Assembly: GCA_964016885.1 (NCBI GenBank)
Contig: OZ024740.1
Coordinates: 408,642,001 to 408,706,000, forward strand
From: Eledone cirrhosa
Lineage: Eukaryota
DNA length: 64,000 nucleotides
Reading direction: 5' to 3'
The number at the start of each line of letters is the position of its first letter. Within the stretch, counting starts at the first letter, position 1. The position numbers were made by a program, and so were the translations under genes. The notes below the pieces were generated by a model. The model ran no database searches. It had not been told where the DNA came from and saw only the letters and a program-made list of their open reading frames with translations. This document shows, one piece after another, positions 2,290 to 44,562 of the stretch.

Positions 2290-4845
<2,556 letters not shown>

Positions 4846-4846
<1 letters not shown>

Positions 4847-5768
4847 AATGGAATAGAGTGAAACGAAATTTCATTTCTCACTCTTAGTACGGCACTTATT
4901 TAAATGTATGTATGCATGTATGTATACGTACATACATATATGTATACAGACGTACAGTAGTATGTATATATATATACATACATGCACACATATATATATG
5001 CACGTATCGGTTTACCGAACATTTATTATAATGCTCGGTTTGTTTGTAAACAAACAAACAGCCCGAATTACGCCGTACAGTGTTTAGGCAACCACGTCAC
5101 CTTTTTGTTCAACACTGACACAGGAACGATATACTAGTTTCAAGCTTATTAGCTATCGTCAGCATCGTATACCTTCCTGCCAGATGGTTGAACGTCTGAA
5201 AGTATATACTTTCCTTATGCATATTAACGGCTGAGCAGCCTAATTTGCATATCGAGTGAGTTAAGTCGGCCGGGCGCACCGAAAACGATAAATGGAATAG
5301 AATGAAACGAAATTTCATTTCTCACTCTTAGTACGGCACTTACTTAAATGTAAGTATGCATGTATGTATACGTACATACATATATGTATACAGGCGTACA
5401 GTAGTATGTATATATATATACATACATGCACACATATATATGCACGCATCGGTTTACCGAACATTTATTATAATGCTCGGTTTGTTTGTAAACAAACAAA
5501 CAGCCCGAATTACGCCGTACAGTGTTTAGGCAACCACGTCACCTTTTTGTTCAACACTGACACAGGAACGATGTACTAGTTTCAAGCTTATTAGCTATCG
5601 TCAGCATCGTATACCTTCCTGCCAGATGGTTGAATGTCTGAAAGTATATACTTTCCATTTATCGTTTACGGTGGGCCCGGCCGACTGAACTCACTCGATA
5701 TGCAAATTAGGCTGCTCAGCCGTTAATATGCATAAGGAAAGTATATACTTTCAGACGTTCAACCATCA
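4846..5768. repeat. About 443-bp direct repeat (two copies) plus an inverted copy of its internal segment
   Basis: 4846-5214 is nearly identical to 5290-5656; about 5655-5767 is the reverse complement of about 5185-5297; a related segment lies at 35065-35110. Confidence 0.85.
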
Positions 5769-6387
5769 GTTTAGTATGTACAGGGTGTAATGGATGCGAC
5801 ATATATTATACGCGAATTGTACAATAATTCAAATTAAGATTAAAATTAAAATTAAAAGCACAGAGTGGAATACATGCGACAGATAATACAAGAGAATAGT
5901 CTAATAATTAAAGAGGCATTGAGGAAGCGTGTAGAGATTGTACATGCGTTAGTCCTATATATGGGAAGAAAACAGGCAAATGTATTAGGCATATACGAGT
6001 ACTGTATGGCAAGGTATTACATAAAATACAAGCACTTTAAGCGAATATGTTAGTGTATTATGGAGGATGTAATGCGAGGATAGTTTCTGTATAGTTCAAA
6101 TATGTATGTGTGTAGAATATGAAAGTTACAGATTTCCCATCCATTACATATGTTAAGTTATATTTTAGTTAATGTTTGTATTGAATGTTTTTAGTTAGTT
6201 ATAGTAATGGATTGTAACTTGGTCTTATTGTATTCATATTCATTGATTAGAGTTGTTCTACAGCGAGATTTTTCAACCGTTTAATATCCGGAAGTCGATA
6301 TGGAATTAAGGGGAGCTAATGCGTAAGGGGAGGTAACTAGCTCGTTATAATATTAAAATTCTTTGCTCTAATAGACATTATATATAT

Positions 6388-7076: not shown

Positions 7077-8578
7077 CTAGCGGCTAGATTTAAAGCTATC
7101 GAATGAGTGTCGGTAGTGGTGTTGGCACGAGGAAAACACCTCTGACTTTTTATTTAGGAGGTTTAGTTTCGAAAAGATTATAGTATGGGTCTCTAGAAGA
7201 CAGAGGTTACAAAATGTATTCGGTTGTTTATACGATGCAACCCTACCTACTACTTCCCATTGAAGTGTATATGTTCTATTCCTAGTTTTCAGAGAGTGTA
7301 TGTAGCTAGATAGTGAAGTGTAGTTGGCTAGATTGTGTTTTTTGAAAGAGTGGAGGTGCGAGTTGTATCTCATCTTGAAGCAGTTCGAAGTAGAGCCACT
7401 ATATGTTTTAGAAGAGTTGTTTGTGTTGACCGTGCAGGATTAAATGATGTCTTTGATTAAGCAATTATTACTTAATGGGTAAGTTCTATTTGATCTACAG
7501 TTACATTTATTTTGCCGGTTATTATGTTGTGCAGAAGTCTGGTTGTTATGGATAGCATTAGGGTAATGATGGTTGTCGTTCCTATTGTTATTGATTTCAT
7601 TAGTGTTATTACTATTATTACTATTGCTACTAGGGTTTGTAGTTATTATGTTGTTCTGTAAGTTTACCTTCTGCTGTGTTTTAATTAGTTGGAAATAATT
7701 ATTAATCTTCCTTTTATTACAACTAGCTATATGGAATGCTATGTTAGGTGTGGTAGAGTAAGAGATTTTAATGGTGTTTTTATTTATAAGATTATGGTAT
7801 TTGTCGCCAGATGGGAAGTTTTTTTCTAGGATTGAGAAGAAAGCCTTAGGTAAGTTGGTAGAAACGTTTAGATTGAAAGGGGGATTGAAGAATGTATTAG
7901 TTCTTCTTCTATTTTTGTTTTTTGTAATATCTATTGAGGTATTTCTGTTTATAATATTATTGTGGTGTTTACTTTGGTGCGAGTTAAGTTTGACATTACC
8001 CTTCGTATTAGAGTAAGAGTGGCTAGTACTCTTATTATTTTTCCTCATGGCCATATTGTGAGAAATAATGCTGTAACTATGTGATTTTATAGGTAGGAAT
8101 TCAATCCCATTTTTATGGCCTGATTTAGCTAATGCCTGATTATAGTATTGGGAATTATTGTTAAATATGGTTTCGTTTTATGATAGATTAGAGATTCTAT
8201 TAGATATTCCTTTAGTGATTGAGTTTAATATGGATTTAGGGTGGTTAGACTTGGTATCCACATAAATTAGGTTTTCGTTAAGTTTATGAAAGGGTGTATA
8301 TTTCTTAGAGTCTAGGCAAAGGGTAGCATCAAGGAAGTTAACATTTTTAGTGTTTTTGTCTAAGGCGATACTTAAGTTGAAGTTTTTGAAAATCTTATGT
8401 AATAGTTTCCTAGTTCTTTCTATATTAAATTTGTTATAGTCTATAAGGAGTAGTGCATCATCGCGGTATAAACCACCATTGATGTAGGGTAGGTTCTTAT
8501 GAATTTCATTTAGTAGATATAGGCCCACCAAATCAGTGACCTGCGGCGAGTCACTAGATCCCATAGTTATGTCAAAGT
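7077..8578 (-). mobile_element. 5'-truncated, frameshifted Penelope-like retroelement (RT plus C-terminal GIY-YIG; probably Hydra clade)
   Basis: FDITMGSSDSPQVTDLVGLYLL, GGLYRDD, VNFLD, SNHP, FFNPPF, IKISYS, CNCR..YPL.NNCL, TYSGST..FKMRY..H, CNLCLLE; abuts (TA)n at 8583; clade assignment from recalled motif pattern. Confidence 0.85.
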
Positions 8579-8650
<72 letters not shown>

Positions 8651-20149: not shown

Positions 20150-20752
20150 TATTAGAATTGGTGCTCTGAAATAGCCATATATATATGAAGGTATATATAG
20201 TGTATTTTGCAATACACTTTATGCTTAATTAAAAGCATTTCGAAGACCTTATGCTATTGTTTTAGAGTAGTGACAGACTCACTTACTTTAATTTCAGCAA
20301 ACAGGGGGAGATAAAGTTGACAAGGCCTTGTTTCTGCATTTATTGATGCTTATCAAAGCCAACTACTCCTCCCATCTGCTGAAGTCATGCATAAAGTGTA
20401 TTGCAAAATACACTATATATACATTCATATATATATGGCTATTTCAGAGCACCAATTCTAATTTTTAATTTCTGCTTGACTGGCAACCGCTCTGTATAAT
20501 CAGTTCCTGATTATTTACTAGAATTCTATAATAACCAAACATCCATTATTTCAGCAGACGGGAGGAGTAGTTGGCTTTGATAAGCATCAATAAATGCAGA
20601 AACAAGGCCTTGTCAGCTTTATCTCCCCCTGTTTGCTGAAATTAAAGTAAGTGAGTCTGTCACTACTCTAAAACAATAGCATAAGGTCTTCGAAATGCTT
20701 TTAATTAAGCATAAAGTGTATTGCAAAATACACTATATATACATTCATATAT
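20150..20752. mobile_element. Non-coding hammerhead-bearing element: about 320-bp + unit with terminal redundancy, preceded by an inverted partial copy
   Basis: 20389-20432 repeats at 20709-20752; 20150-20383 is an inverted copy; hammerhead-like motifs at 20550-20640 (+) and 20293-20383 (-); homologous to 34150-35020. Confidence 0.75.
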
Positions 20753-20808
20753 ACGTATATATATATTCGACAGCTATATATATATATATATTGGGGTCAT
20801 ACTTGTTC

Positions 20809-20868
<60 letters not shown>

Positions 20869-20874
<6 letters not shown>

Positions 20875-22003
20875 AAAAAAGATGAAATCGAAAATACAAC
20901 TGGAGTCTTTTTTTTTTTAAATATATATTTATTTGGTTCCTTTACCGGTTTCGCAGTTCTTCTGCTTTTCAAAAGTATAGTTGAGATGGAGGGTTTGTGG
21001 TTTTTCTCACATCTGGTTGGTCTTTGAATGTTACTTCTGTTTTATATGGAAAAAAGTGGCTCGAAATGCCAGGTTTTTAGAGAAGTAATTTGATTGGTTG
21101 GTGAATAAGTATAATAAATTTCGCGCCAGTTCGCGTTACAAAGTTCTTCAAACAAAGGGGGGCTCAGGTTGTTTTTTTCATATATGAGGGAAGTTTGGCT
21201 GGTTGATGCAGTCACGTGAATAACCACATCAGCTTTCGCACCAGTTTGGGTTTGAATTTCTTTTTACAAATGTAATTTGATTGGTTATAAATGAAATTAT
21301 GACTGTCACGTGAACAAGTGCATTAAATTTCGCGCCCGTATTTTGTAATTTTTTTATAGCCATTTAGAGCATTTTGTGCCAAACAAAAGATAATGGTCAA
21401 GAAAAATTCTCTAAATGGCTATAAAAAAAATTCCAAAATACGGGCGCAAAATTTAATGCACTTGTTCACGTGACAGTTATAATTTTATTTATAACCAATC
21501 AAATTACATTTATAAAAAAAAAAGCGTTCGTGAGCCACTTTTTTTTAAGTAAAAAGAAATTCAAACACAAACTGGCGCGAAAGCTGATGTGCTTATTCAC
21601 GTGACTGCATCAACCAACCAAACTTCACTCATATATGAAAAAACAACCTGAGCCCCACCTTTGTTTGAAGAACTTTGTAACGCGAACTGGCGCGAATTTA
21701 TTATACTTATTCACCAACCAACCAAATTACTTCTCTAAAAACCTCGCATTTCGAACCACTTTTTTCCATATAAAACAAAAGTAACATTCAAAGACCAACC
21801 AGATGTGAGAAAAACCACAGACCCTCCATCTCAACTCTACTTTTGAAAAGCAGAAGAACTGCGAAACTGGTAAAGGAAACAAATAAATATATATTTAAAA
21901 AAAAAAAGACTCCAGTTGCATTTTCTATTTCATCTCTTTTCTTTATACTTTCACTCGTGTAGGACACCTCGGTTATTTTTCATTTTGTAAAAAAAAACCT
22001 CAC

Positions 22004-33629: not shown

Positions 33630-34332
33630 GATCGTTTTGGAAGCCTCAACAATGCAGATGCGTAAATCTCCGAGTAACAGAATCAGGTGGTGAAGAGAGA
33701 GATGTAAGAGGAAATGTAGAATGAGACATATAGTGTGTAGAGGAACATAGAAAGAATGTAAAAATAATAACACGAGATAGAGTTCCTTGGAAGTGATTTA
33801 AGTGTCCCTATATTTCGGATTTCGCATCCATCAACAGTTGAACACAAACGGCGGACAACAGAGGCCACATACCGTTCCTCTCCGACTAAAAACGATTCCC
33901 CTCGGAAAAAACCCCAGTTGATGGATGCGAATAACGTATACTAAGAATAGACACACACACACACATAGTAAGTTTCATATTGTTTACATCTACGCATCAT
34001 CTAATCTTCCGTCTCCCTGTCATATTGTATCGTCGTATTGATACATGCATACACGCTAGCTCGAAGTAGCTATGCAGCAAATTATGTAGTGATAAATCCT
34101 GTCATAAATATTATTCTCCTGCTTCCACCACATACATACATATATATATACTCCAAATTATAGTAGCTGAATTCTTATAGAATTCCAGTAATAATTAGGA
34201 GCTGATTATACAGACCGATTGCCGGTCCAGCAAAAAATTTTGCAATCGCTCTGTATAATCAGCTCCTCATTATTACTGGAATTCTACAAGAATTCAGCTT
34301 CTATAATTTCCGGCAGAAGCAGGGGAGTACGT

Positions 34333-34374
34333 GGTTCTGATGAACGCCAGCCAGCGTGAAACAGACTGTCAGCT
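34333..34374 (+). ncRNA. Type I hammerhead ribozyme motif
   Basis: GGTT-CTGATGA-ACGCcagccaGCGT-GAAA-CAGaCTG-TC-AGCT; stem I extends past an internal loop. Confidence 0.8.
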
Positions 34375-34825
34375 TCTCTGCCTTCTTTCGCAGAAAAGAA
34401 GTGACATAGTCACTACTTTAAAACTGATAGTGTATGGTCTTCTAAATATCTTTAATTAAACATACGGTATATTGCCAAATATACTATACAAACATTCATA
34501 TATATATATATATATATATATAATAAAAATATTATTTATACTTATATATAAACTATATATAATTATAAACAGAAAAGGTCAGTATTTTTTTATTTTATAC
34601 CACCTTATTACCAGTATGAAAAATAGCTCAATGTAAATACATCAGATGTCTTATTACAGAGCAGGAATATAAAATACAGAACAATCAAAACTATGTTTAA
34701 TACATTTTATTGCTGACAATCGTTTCTTCCAAACAGCCATTTGGATTCATCGGAGCGTTGGCAAAGCTTAAACATATAATTAAATTCCTATTCTACAGAA
34801 CAATCGGTGGAAGCCGAGAGTACGT

Positions 34826-34867
34826 AGCTCTGATGAACGCCAGCCAGCGTGAAACAGACTGTCAGCT
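34826..34867 (+). ncRNA. Type I hammerhead ribozyme motif
   Basis: AGCT-CTGATGA-ACGCcagccaGCGT-GAAA-CAGaCTG-TC-AGCT, extended by GAGAG/CTCTC. Confidence 0.85.
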
Positions 34868-35342
34868 TCTCTCCCTTCTTTCGCAGAAAAGAAGTAAGTG
34901 ACTACTTTAATACTGATAACGTATGGTCTTCTAAATGTTTTTAATTAAACATACAGTATATTGCTAAATATACTATACATACATTCATGTATAAATCGCT
35001 ATTTCAGAGCACCAATCCTAATATATATATATATATATATATAGTTTTGACACCTATGTACATGGGCTGCTTAGCCTCATTTGCATATTGAGCTATCAGC
35101 TGTCTCGGCCGGAAAATTGCAGGTAACTTCTCCTTAAAGAGTTTTTTAACCCGACTCTTTATTACAGGGTATCATTCCTTTCTTGTTCAGTTTAGCACTG
35201 CTAGTTTATTTCTGGCGGAATGGTCCCTATTATGTCTTGTTGTCGTCGTCATTGTCTTTGTTGTTGTTCGGGTTAGCCCTGATTAAGTAGACGTATGGTG
35301 ATGTGACTATCATATCTTTTTGTGATCAGACCACATTATTTC

Positions 35343-39893: not shown

Positions 39894-41624
39894 TTATACT
39901 TCTCTTAGGTCAGTGTTGTTTGTTTGGGTGTTGTTGTTGTTCCACTCATTCTTTCTGTTTAGCTTTGGTCTTCTAATTTCTATTTCACTGGCCTCTCTGA
40001 TTTGCCTATCTGCTGGGTCATTCCTATGTTTAGATATTATTCTAATTTCTATGTTGTCTATGTTACCGTCATGTTGTTGTCTAGCATGTTCGTATAGTGC
40101 TGACCCGTTTTTTCGTCCTTTTAGTTCCCCCCAGTGTTGGTCTATCCTTTCACCTATGCTACGAGCTGTCTCACCTATGTATGTTGTTGTCATGTTTCTG
40201 CAAGTACCCTCTGTACATCTTATGCTATAGACTACGTTTCTAGTTTTACAGTTTATCCGGGGGTTCACCTTACATATGATACATTTGATACATTGTCTAG
40301 CATGTTCGTATAGTACTGACCCGTTTCTAGTTTTACAGTTTATCCGGGGGTTCACCTTACATATGATACATATGATACATTGTCTAGCATGTTCGTATAG
40401 TACTGACCCGTTTTTTCGTCCTTTTAGTTCCCCCCAGTGTTGGTCTATCCTTTCACCTATGCTACGAGCTGTCTCACCTATGTATGTTGTTGTCATGTTT
40501 CTGCAAGTACCCTCTGTACATCTTATGCTATAGACTACGTTTCTAGTTTTACAGTTTATCCGGGGGTTCACCTTACATATGATACATTTCCTATTGGTAC
40601 AGTGGGTTTTCTTAAAGGGGTAGGTTTTGCTGATCAGGGATTTTATGGTGGTTCCTGGCTTTTCTACCACCTTTATTTTTAAGTGGGTCTTTCTCAGGGC
40701 CTTTCTACACTGGTTAGCTAATTTTCCTCCAGGGGTGGCGTCCACAAACATGACACTCTGATATCTCTGGTTGTCGTGCCATGATGTGGCCTTCCCTATC
40801 TTATGTCTAGCCCTATCTAAGCTATTCCATGATTTGCTCCTGTATAGTGGGCAAATTCCTTTCATGTCCAGTTCTATGAGGGTCTTATACTTTTCCATGG
40901 CTCCTTCGTATACTCTGATTCTGTCTCTTTGGTTGTAGCCAGAGAACTGCATGCGGTTGATGAAGTGTTGGATGTGTCTTTCCATTTCTGTTGGGTCGCA
41001 CATGCTGGACACATTCTTCATCACTCGTACCAAATCTGCGATCAGAATATTAAACTTAGCACTACTGGACATTGCTGAGTTTTTGAGTATCAGGTATTTG
41101 GAGGCCGTGGGTTTAGCATAGTGTGAGTGGAGAATTTGGGCTCTCTCGTCTATAGTGTTAATCCAGAGTTCTGTGTCTAATACAGGTAGTCTATTGTTAG
41201 GGTGTTTGGAAGGGAAGTCGATAGTTACAGTTATACTCTGGTGTATGGAATTAGCTATCTGCTGGATGCTTTCCATCGTGCTACGTTCTAAATCAAACTT
41301 GTTAGTGCTCTCTAGTGGGGGTGTTCTTATAACTATATTGATATCGTCTACATAACGAGAGTACATGATGAGGTCTATGGAGCTTTCATTAAGGAGATCT
41401 TTAAGTCTCCTTTTCCACCATACCATGAAAAGGTTGGCAACATCACCAGCTATGCTGACGCCGATGGCTGCTCCCTCATTTTGGGTGTAGATTTTCTCAT
41501 TGAACTTAAATATGTGGCCCTTTAGGGTAGTTTTGATACTAGCCCCTATTGCATGTGCGACCATTTTTCTTACCTGATCAGTGTTTTGGGGGGGGTCCGT
41601 ATAGCTTTGGTCCCCCCAATCCAC
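39894..41624 (-). CDS. PLE reverse transcriptase C-terminal half plus tandem GIY-YIG endonuclease (frameshifted from 41570..42022)
   Basis: 576-aa open frame carrying the motifs above. Confidence 0.75.
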   Translation of the reverse strand: MDWGDQSYTDPPQNTDQVRKMVAHAIGASIKTTLKGHIFKFNEKIYTQNEGAAIGVSIAGDVANLFMVWWKRRLKDLLNESSIDLIMYSRYVDDINIVIRTPPLESTNKFDLERSTMESIQQIANSIHQSITVTIDFPSKHPNNRLPVLDTELWINTIDERAQILHSHYAKPTASKYLILKNSAMSSSAKFNILIADLVRVMKNVSSMCDPTEMERHIQHFINRMQFSGYNQRDRIRVYEGAMEKYKTLIELDMKGICPLYRSKSWNSLDRARHKIGKATSWHDNQRYQSVMFVDATPGGKLANQCRKALRKTHLKIKVVEKPGTTIKSLISKTYPFKKTHCTNRKCIICKVNPRINCKTRNVVYSIRCTEGTCRNMTTTYIGETARSIGERIDQHWGELKGRKNGSVLYEHARQCIICIICKVNPRINCKTRNGSVLYEHARQCIKCIICKVNPRINCKTRNVVYSIRCTEGTCRNMTTTYIGETARSIGERIDQHWGELKGRKNGSALYEHARQQHDGNIDNIEIRIISKHRNDPADRQIREASEIEIRRPKLNRKNEWNNNNTQTNNTDLREV

Positions 41625-44562
41625 CTTCCTATGGGAGTCTTTTTAGCCATTGAGGTTATGGTGGGGGGTCTACCTCTTATAGGTCTACTAGGGCAGAAAC
41701 ATCTAAGGTCATGGCTGTCTAGGTAGTCAGTGTCGTAGGTAAGTCTAAGTAGGAGGCGCAGTTCGTCTGTGTCGACGTCACAGAACTCCACCTCACTCTC
41801 AATGATCATCTCCACACATCTTTTCACAGCAAAATCAATGTTAATGGATGGGTACAGTGACACCACATCCATGCTGCCTATTATGCAGTTGGATAGGCTC
41901 CTGTTTTTGTTGCACTCACTGATTCTGCTGAGGAGGTCCTCTGTACTTTCACATACATCTGGGGACATCTTGATTATGGGGCGTATAACCATTGAGAGGA
42001 AGTAGATACAATATAGATACAAACTTCCAGAAATCCTTAGCTTGTACAGTATATGTTACCGAGAAGCAGCAATAATGCGATAAGCAGTAGATCTACAGTA
42101 ATCCGAACAGAAGAATTTGACCGCAACTCTTCTGTAAGCGCCTGCCTTGTGTCCACAACTCGCTTGTTTGTGTATGTATTTCGAACAATTGTTATTAAAT
42201 CCAAATTGAATCCTAATTCAGTAGGCCTATATTCAGAGATAACTCAGCATTCAATCTAACACCTCCTTCCTTTTTTAAGACAGTAAGGTGTGATTTGAAT
42301 TAAATTAGGATGTTGGTCAACCATATAGAATCTCCCTCATTGATTTATGGTGATATTGCTTTCGCTGTTTACTTCCTTGTTAACCATTTTCAAATAGATA
42401 TATGATTAAAGGTGTTCACTTAGTGAATAACATTTTATTTAAAGACAGTGTATTTAGGACAATAAAATAAAAGTACTAAGAGTCAATAAAATAAAATATC
42501 AGTCGAGTATTTCTGTCGATGTAATCAACTGTTCTGCTCCCTTCCAAATTTCTGGTTCTAGTGAAAGGTATTGCATGGTAGACAAGATTAAAACTACTGG
42601 AGAGACACGTTCTTCATTGATGAATACGTCATCAACTTCAAACTTTGACAAGAAAGTCAATGTGAAGGGAGGAGTGCTTTCTTTCAGGAGATTTGCTGGA
42701 AGGTGTATGAGCGGTAAGAATGTCTCGCGTGATTGAGTCTACAAATGTAGACCAGAAACTCGAGTTGAAAGAGGACAATTATTCTTGATAGCAAGGGTAA
42801 TCCGAAATAAGGTTACGAGAAATTTGACATATCTCTGCTTCTCTGTAAACGAATTGAAGGAAGCATTGGCCGACGTGTGGGACAGTCTCTTGTCCATCGA
42901 ACAAGGCAGTGTCTCACTGATTTGGGGGATGAAAATGGAGGCAAAACAGTAAGCAGAGGTGGTGAAATTCATACTCGTCTTTGAGCTTGTACCGCTGTAC
43001 ATGGACCAGAATAACACATGAGTAACAATCAGGTGCATTTGGTAGTGAGAATGCCCTCCCCCCGGTTCATTGTCACGTTTTTAGCGCAATTTGGACAAGA
43101 ATGCAGACGTGAGAATGGTTTGAAAGTGTTTAAGACTCCTTAAGACATTTCCCTTCCAGAGTGGGATTCCGACTTGCAAGCAGATACACAGGTAATAAGT
43201 CTGGCAATACAGGGGAGATTTTCCAGCTGTTAAATATATGACAGCAAAAGTAGATACTTGAGAGTAGCTTTCTGTCTTAGAATGTAGTTCCTGAAAAGGT
43301 AGAGGAAGAGAGAAGGGGGCAAAAGGCAGTAGAACCGGTAATAACAACAACAGGTCCCAGAAGCTGACCATACCAGTTAAAGCCCTGGAAATGGCGCAAA
43401 AGATTACTTCATACGCGGTCTCAGAAGCTGACTATACCGAAGCACTACACCTCCAAAGTAATACCACTCCATTCACGATGGGGTCTGATTGGTGGTTGAA
43501 GAAGAGTAATAGACCATAGCAGGGAAAAGGGAAAAGGACGAAGAGGCGGAAGAAGATCGACAAGAAAAAGCAAAAGGTGAATAAAACACAAAAGGGTCTC
43601 CACTCCACCGAACATGAAATTCACAGACATTAGATTATACATGTTCCTCAATAAAACCAATAATGAAGATGTAGGCTATGAGGAGGAAAACAAAGGCCGA
43701 TATACATAAGGCAGGAGAACGATAGGATAGTGAAAACTATACCAGTTGTATCAGAAGACGTTGCTGGTGAGTGTGGTCAACAAAAGATAAATGTTCAAGT
43801 GTGCCTTTTGGTATATCCAGTTTCAATATAATGGGTGGCTGACCTGGAGCGCTTGAACCAGACCTAACTAGTGGGTTTTCACTCGTATGTGGGTGGGCCA
43901 CATAGTTTGTGTTTCCATTTCTTAAATTATATTTGGTTTTAATTATGAAATGATTTTATATAATTGTATATTTATTGACCTTTACTCTTTATTAATTTTT
44001 TGCTCTTCATTATATAAAATTCTTCCCCTTCCTTTCGTTTTTTTTTTTGTAGAACTTTCTCTTGTTTCTCCACACATGTTTTATATACTCCACATTTTAA
44101 CATGTTATTTGTGTGACTAATAAAGAAATTGCGTGTCTTTTATGGAGCTGCGTGAGCTAAAAAGTATCGAATTACTTTCAGAATTGGATGTTTGGTGTGG
44201 TGGAGGAATCTGTTACAGATATAAGTTAAAAGTTTATCTTTGTGTTTCTCTCCAATTGGGAGAAGAAAATATTTTACATTAAAATTTGTTTGCCGTCGGA
44301 TAGTTTTCTCTCTACAAAGCATGGAAATAACGATTACAAAAATCTGAACAACTGAAATAGTAGCAACAATAGCTTCTCTAGTTTATCAAACGGAAAGAAA
44401 TATGTCATAAAATATTCCGTCTTCTTGCTTGACCATTTTATGAAAAAGACAAAAACAAAAATGGACATTAAAAGCTATCTTTTATTGAAAGTACATTCAA
44501 ATTCAATTTTTTAGGATTTTACTCTGATTTATAAATGATGTTTGGTGTTTGGTTTTTAAAAG

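Follow-up and report, generated by a model that had tools for sequence, protein, structure and literature searches.

The closest described systems are the non-LTR retrozymes of metazoans, which have already been described together with a proposed link to Penelope-like elements, PLEs (PMC7229834; 10.64898/2026.07.22.740005). Like the element described here, they are non-coding, of 150–450 nt, with a proposed mobilisation by PLEs, and carry a type I hammerhead with a 4-bp helix II and a palindromic helix III in a predicted circle that is self-paired. Compared with the available text of both sources, the present element is distinguished by a U3-A8 core, by a heritable A between positions 11.1 and G12 in 26% of the matches, by a helix III of 12 nt instead of 1–2 bp plus a loop, by insertions that mostly have one to two units, set in opposed arms, and by a monomer predicted to be self-blocked; metazoan retrozyme circles were mostly not predicted to be so (PMC7229834). 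In Xenopus, eight of nine retrozyme dimers were uncleaved in vitro (10.64898/2026.07.22.740005).

U3-A8 hammerheads are known from Penelope elements and phages (PMC4209133, PMC3088659). In the PLEs of S. mansoni, they amount to about 1,300 genomic motifs, and the minimal hammerheads of PLEs show weak cleavage (PMC4209133). U3-A8 covariation was also reported for several natural hammerheads, together with citations of earlier activity in vitro, and the variants of Perreault et al. 2011 resemble the present one both in U3-A8 and in having core insertions (A6a, U13a, 2a/2b), some of them active (PMC3088659). As this core variant is already published, its novelty here is low. The Cercyon PLEs of S. 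mansoni share with the present locus the U3-A8 core, pairs of motifs on opposite strands 100–700 bp apart, and a dimer model (PMC4209133). According to the available text of that source, Cercyon has a helix II of 7–8 bp and no real helix III, whereas helix II has 4 bp here; its extra base, between 9 and 10.1, flanks the 5' strand of helix II, not the 3' strand as here; and its motifs sit in pLTRs of coding elements, whereas no linked ORF was found here. A long helix II, a 9/10.1 base and a flanking RT-EN ORF, typical of Cercyon-type minimal hammerheads, were thus not features of the unit. From the EN+ PLEs of Craig et al. 2021, partial tandems, an adjacent inverted 5'-truncated copy, a tail at one end only and microsatellite targets are known, all of them found here; the tail measures 30–40 nt there and 29 nt here, where the unit is non-coding (PMC8557442).

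The window, that is, the whole stretch of DNA analysed, comprises 64,000 nt of contig OZ024740.1 of Eledone cirrhosa. The locus consists of two back-to-back arms of a 320-nt non-coding unit, in opposite orientation, the longest ATG ORF of the unit coding for 28 aa. The features of the locus and of its relative in the window are the following.

20151–20392, minus strand: inverted arm, 5'-truncated, ending with the tail (inverted repeats I2 and I5, alignment)
20151–20179, minus strand: 29-nt tail, confined to the outer end of the inverted arm (repeats, end comparison)
20315–20360, minus strand: second hammerhead copy (U3-A8, extra A), inside the inverted arm (homology, motif)
20389–20753, plus strand: direct arm of 1.14 units (320 + 45 nt), with the tail-less end (repeats)
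20389–20433, plus strand: 45-nt direct repeat, copy 1, a partial upstream unit (family D6, 100% identical)
20434–20462, plus strand: tail sequence inside the unit (repeats, end comparison)
20548–20642, plus strand: long hairpin carrying the hammerhead (folding, pair changes)
20573–20618, plus strand: type I hammerhead motif, predicted cut after C20614 (motif, homology, covariation)
20573–20576/20615–20618, plus strand: helix I
20577–20583, plus strand: core strand UUGAUAA, with U3 at 20577 and A8 at 20582
20584–20587/20594–20597, plus strand: helix II, 4 bp
20598, plus strand: extra A between C11.1 and G12, common to 227 of 879 matches
20599–20602, plus strand: GAAA
20602–20613, plus strand: palindromic helix III, perfect, 12 nt (repeat D17)
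20709–20753, plus strand: 45-nt repeat, copy 2, the fixed outer end of the tail-less arm, entering a TA tract
34155–35030: sister C3-G8 family with two hammerheads (34337, 34830), sharing the ends and tail of the unit

The arms are delimited by two inverted repeats, 20180–20392 being an inverted copy of 20541–20753 (I2; 213 nt, 97%) and 20151–20224 an inverted copy of 20389–20462 (I5; 74 nt, 99%). In terms of the unit, the inverted arm stops 29 nt beyond the end of the direct arm, and its hammerhead copy has a private helix I mismatch at 20317. A preliminary description of the interval had treated it as one hammerhead unit; the motifs are present, and the inverted arm with the second hammerhead had gone undescribed. 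The terminal redundancy of 44 bp given in the same description corresponds to a real direct repeat, 20389–20433 being equal to 20709–20753 at a spacing of 320, but its length is 45 nt. Tandem extent at the locus is limited to the 1.14 units of 20389–20753. In the family, arm starts are spread all round the unit, so the length of the redundancy varies and is not a family feature.

All motifs quoted in the preliminary description, including the UUGAUAA core and the long stem around it, were found in place. The core follows YUGANRA...GAAA...UH, positions 3 and 8 are paired, and a GUC triplet is present, with its C at 20614. The three helices are open at helix I and are backed by two-sided changes in helices I, II and III; loop II has 6 nt, and beyond helix I there is an internal loop. 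The hairpin had a z of -5.98, with none of 200 shuffles as stable. The motif departs from the standard hammerhead in that 11.1 is not directly followed by G12, in the window copy and in the 227 matches with the extra A. Rfam gave no hammerhead match for the window copy, at the gathering score or at E up to 10, and sister-family copies matched Hammerhead_HH9 weakly, with 18.0 and 16.1 bits (cut-off 52). The 320-nt unit is non-coding, within the range of about 150–450 nt of retrozymes, and carries one type I hammerhead.

A DNA search of the 3.0-Gb genome yielded 1686 candidates, the best of 40 scored at 96–100%. A pattern anchored on helix III, with position 3 free as C or U and position 8 free as G or A, gave 879 matches genome-wide and 0 in the reversed control, so the motif is not due to chance; 879 is a lower bound, as copies with altered helix III escape this pattern. 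U3-A8 was present in 857 of the 879, together with nine C3-A8 and 13 U3-G8 matches; C3-G8 was absent from them, and a further count again gave 0. All nine C3 matches carry A8 and all 13 G8 matches carry U3. These counts bear out the expected joint fixation of U3 and A8 and exclude a family made up mostly of C3/G8 copies.

The homology to the family at 34 kb, also proposed previously, was confirmed at 73% over 287 nt. This sister family had 514 pattern matches in the genome. Among the first 100 listed, 92 were C3-G8, five U3-A8, two C3-A8 and one U3-G8, and the U3-A8 sub-lineage accounted for 38 of the 514 genome-wide. In 35 of these 38, the A before GAAA faces the A after A9, an A-A mismatch that closes helix II. 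Two sister U3-A8 copies passed the filter of the joint tree and both fell inside the sister clade, one of them on a long branch, a placement that points to a likely second, independent switch between C3-G8 and U3-A8. In organism B (run X4), one 284-nt contig covers 20420–20707, and its listed differences fit the subfamily with changed helices I and II and no extra A.

For the tree, 121 locus records, some of them overlapping, provided 178 copies, of which 106 were near full length and were used. The sample is non-random, with top matches, pattern matches and deliberately chosen C3 and G8 variants; the sampling patterns prescribe parts of the motif, and some regions of the FastTree topology are weak. 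Branches leading to at least four copies were taken as source elements that really spread. On these branches, all 15 changes at paired sites keep pairing, and five of them are two-sided, at the following positions.

20576/20615: helix I
20586/20595: helix II
20605/20610: helix III palindrome
20550/20640: outer stem (twice)

On terminal branches, by contrast, the pair was broken in 56 of 94 changes and kept in 38 (Fisher p 6e-6; 2.5e-4 when repeated flips at one site count once, with 10 distinct sites). On branches of 2–3 copies it was broken in six of eight. In an alignment of 30 rows chosen by hand from the two families, all 27 distinct rows had the 3-8 pair intact; the covariation score was 0.68, compared with 0.30 for shuffles, which do not control for relatedness. 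Helices I and III are uncounted in this alignment, as its 3' side is misaligned for the sister rows. Core positions showed 0.08 changes per site on inner branches against 0.38, a figure biased by the sampling patterns. RNA editing was rejected as the source of the pair-keeping changes because no editing-like strand bias was detected: A>G and T>C amounted to 0.46 and 0.51 per base on terminal branches, with no A>G excess, and to 0.17 and 0.13 on inner branches, with little excess. One two-sided change is from A-U to U-A. Judging from these substitution patterns, the hammerhead structure is under selection, and the earlier claim that the stems covary under selection agrees with the contrast between amplified and private changes.

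The extra A had been suspected in the preliminary description to inactivate the window copy. It is not a lesion private to that copy, since it marks 26% of the matches and whole amplified lineages; most other matches listed have no base between 11.1 and G12. The insertion is heritable, with 3 changes on the tree against a mean of 35 for shuffled labels. In a 37-copy subset with the sister family as outgroup, it was gained once and lost once, under a weakly supported root, and in the full FastTree there were two gains and one loss. However the tree is rooted, extra-A copies stand on either side of the branch that carries the two-sided helix I change, so that extra-A sources were mobile and structurally constrained; this removes the idea of a dead single copy, while leaving catalysis unproven. 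In the extra-A lineage one change was found at 17 enzyme-side sites, against 2.4 expected, a degree of conservation that is not significant, and this single change weakens the pair to U3-G8. Most likely, the extra A is a tolerated bulge that would leave enough activity.

A crippled enzyme strand in the extra-A lineage, with cleavage in trans by an intact copy in a mixed dimer, would account for several of these features. G12 is the general base of the hammerhead and the extra A adjoins it, helix III and GUC are unchanged in extra-A lineages, and intact subfamilies with matching helix I arms coexist with them. The weaker U3-G8 pair has spread mainly in the extra-A lineage, as 10 of the 13 G8 matches carry the A, but this excess belongs mostly to one sub-lineage and so is not independent. 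Moreover, within the extra-A lineage the two arms of helix I changed jointly, and several changes hit loop II but none hit helix II. Cutting in trans is considered unlikely on this balance, and it is equally doubtful that the lineage is a freeloader that cuts itself poorly, retains palindrome and cut site so as to be cut by intact relatives in mixed dimers, and has its circle locked off through that palindrome. On this doubtful reading, the unpaired A before G12, which would have arisen twice in U3-A8 lineages, as an insertion here and as the A-A mismatch of 35 of the 38 sister matches, may be a repeated means of tuning cleavage down.

The insertions show an inverted 5'-truncated arm, a tail at one end and a microsatellite target, which are marks of PLE mobilisation. 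In 51 of 54 divergent arm pairs the tail is on exactly one arm, and most ends shown enter TA tracts. As in retrozymes, head-to-tail tandem copies are dispersed over many loci: 67 of 182 arms exceed 365 nt and five exceed 685 nt, the longest having 1275 nt or about four units, and the tail runs straight into the next unit in 82 of the 242 end motifs examined. Arm starts were not enriched around the predicted cut: one of the 182 falls within 2 nt of it, where an even spread would place about 2.8. Direct traces of cutting are therefore missing from the genome. Rare variants were shared within a locus in 13 of 89 copy pairs, against 195 of 15405 pairs between loci. Together with arm lengths and starts, this suggests that the enzyme likely copied across the cut site, often for more than one unit, from one template. 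A circular template, as previously proposed, is compatible with these data, and an uncut tandem transcript would fit the arm lengths equally.

Folded as a circle, the unit had a z of -4.9 and was more stable than 100 of 100 shuffles. Of 129 copies, 106 preferred a fold in which the core strand is bound by the 5' half of helix III; this inactive fold lies below the active one by a median of 5.4 kcal/mol (nearest-neighbour folding, 129 copies). In the window copy, the 5' half of helix III is predicted to pair with 20573–20579. The same pairing, hereafter off helix, is preferred in all 33 sister C3-G8 copies; in it C3 faces G in the sister, and U3 faces A in the U3-A8 family. It is missing from all six natural C3-A8 copies and is present in only two of five sister U3-A8 copies; of the 256 possible palindromes, 27 would produce it. 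The off helix is not general, as two other hammerhead families in the window are without the needed bases. Energy models omit the tertiary contacts of the hammerhead core, and the support across families amounts to a single event; for these reasons, that the off helix holds the monomer inactive can be put forward only as a tentative lead. The helix III palindrome, with 12 bp and a self-duplex of -19.5 kcal/mol, fits the published dimer model in its predicted energy, and dimer cleavage through it, also suggested previously, is compatible with these predictions; a monomer, too, can form a helix III, of 4 bp.

The even spread of arm starts, without a peak at the cut site, and the preference for the inactive fold would also be expected if cleavage were dispensable, with uncut tandem or read-through RNA spreading and with selection for a rod-like fold or for being recognised by the Penelope enzyme. 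Naiad PLEs, according to the available text, spread without canonical hammerheads (PMC8557442). However, two-sided changes keep helices I, II and III, and helices I and III are unpaired in the predicted rod; likewise, a joint switch of positions 3 and 8 is seen in two related lineages, and their pair matters only in the active fold. Dispensable cleavage is judged quite improbable.

A partner coding for the enzyme was searched for with the PLE proteins of the window. In 111 fetched loci, tblastn detected no same-sense ORF leading into the unit, a result that covers relatives of these proteins only, and no autonomous element with the same ends as the unit. At one locus (L102, 604–1998), the 3' end of a PLE is joined head-to-head with the unit over 5 shared bases, with TA tracts at both outer ends; these ends do not obviously fit the tail rule, and it is one case. 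Its coding arm resembles the element at 39.9–41.6 kb of the window, a type of protein that resembles clusters with RVT_1, HTH_animal and GIY-YIG; in Pfam, it matches RVT_1 at an E of only 0.0075. The PLE at 39.9–41.6 kb was rejected as the partner, as the end of the unit is not shared by it, by blastn or by eye. The segment 34590–34805 was rejected as a PLE end and proved to be a different abundant repeat, between two sister arms, with 3048 candidates. It is very improbable that the unit is a solo pLTR, the remnant of a 5'-truncated autonomous Penelope-like element, and not an independent replicon: the ends of the unit are of PLE type, U3-A8 is known in PLE pLTRs (PMC4209133) and retrozymes resemble pLTRs (10.64898/2026.07.22.740005), but the tail passes directly into the next unit, arms reach about four units and, within its scope, the tblastn search revealed no same-sense ORF leading into the unit.

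On present sequence evidence, the locus is probably a U3-A8 type I hammerhead of a likely working non-LTR retrozyme that was likely copied into TA tracts by the enzyme of a PLE. Tandem or read-through transcripts would be cut after GUC, a reaction that probably works best in dimers joined by the palindromic helix III, and the cut monomer would be closed into a circle, which may be kept inactive when the core strand pairs with helix III. An RT/GIY-YIG protein of Penelope type would then prime from both sides of a break, copy round the template and stop at a random place, leaving one arm with a tail and one without. As such, the element would be a non-LTR retrozyme of known kind, with the extra A as a testable oddity, and not a new kind of system. 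The extra A and the predicted self-blocking helix are possibly its sole new features. An insertion between 11.1 and 12 was not met in the text on natural core variants (PMC3088659), the supplements of which may show it.

Other elements were observed in the window and among the loci. Directly adjacent, at 20868–21947, lies a two-armed element of an unrelated family (motifs at 20972, minus strand, and 21843, plus strand), with a small U3-A8 hammerhead motif and a 6-nt palindromic helix III; this family gave 12,409 pattern matches, with U3-A8 in every one of the first 100 listed, and tblastn in 12 of its loci found no PLE ORF. A third family, a tandem of about 442 nt whose C3-G8 hammerhead has a helix II closed by U-U, occupies about 4800–5900 on the minus strand (motifs at 5604 and 5162). 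At one locus (L061, minus strand), the tail of the 320-nt unit runs directly into the hammerhead of this family, and this join is possibly a template switch or a nested insertion. At another (L108), copies of two subfamilies stand side by side, with the rare G8 in one copy of each. A PLE-like RT/GIY-YIG ORF with an internal duplication near the C-terminus is located at 39894–42055 (minus strand), with a degenerate minimal hammerhead in the 3' region of the element. Broken ORF pieces at 7077–8582 (minus strand) presumably resemble another PLE clade, by their motifs; two pieces scanned had no Pfam match. In run X1, summed contig depth over 20398–20462 and 20645–20748 was tens of times that of the hammerhead part, a depth that is not a copy number, and suggests that larger families share the ends of the unit.

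The family adds one more well-supported case to the known retrozymes, with a core variant already in print. Subfamilies that have the extra A or lack it, the U3-A8 and U3-G8 forms and the C3-G8 sister family were all amplified in the same genome and constitute a natural mutant series, which bears on how much self-cleavage the spread of a retrozyme needs and on whether dimers of unlike copies complement each other. In addition, the predicted self-blocking helix bears on how the circles of animal retrozymes avoid cutting themselves, a question raised in PMC7229834.
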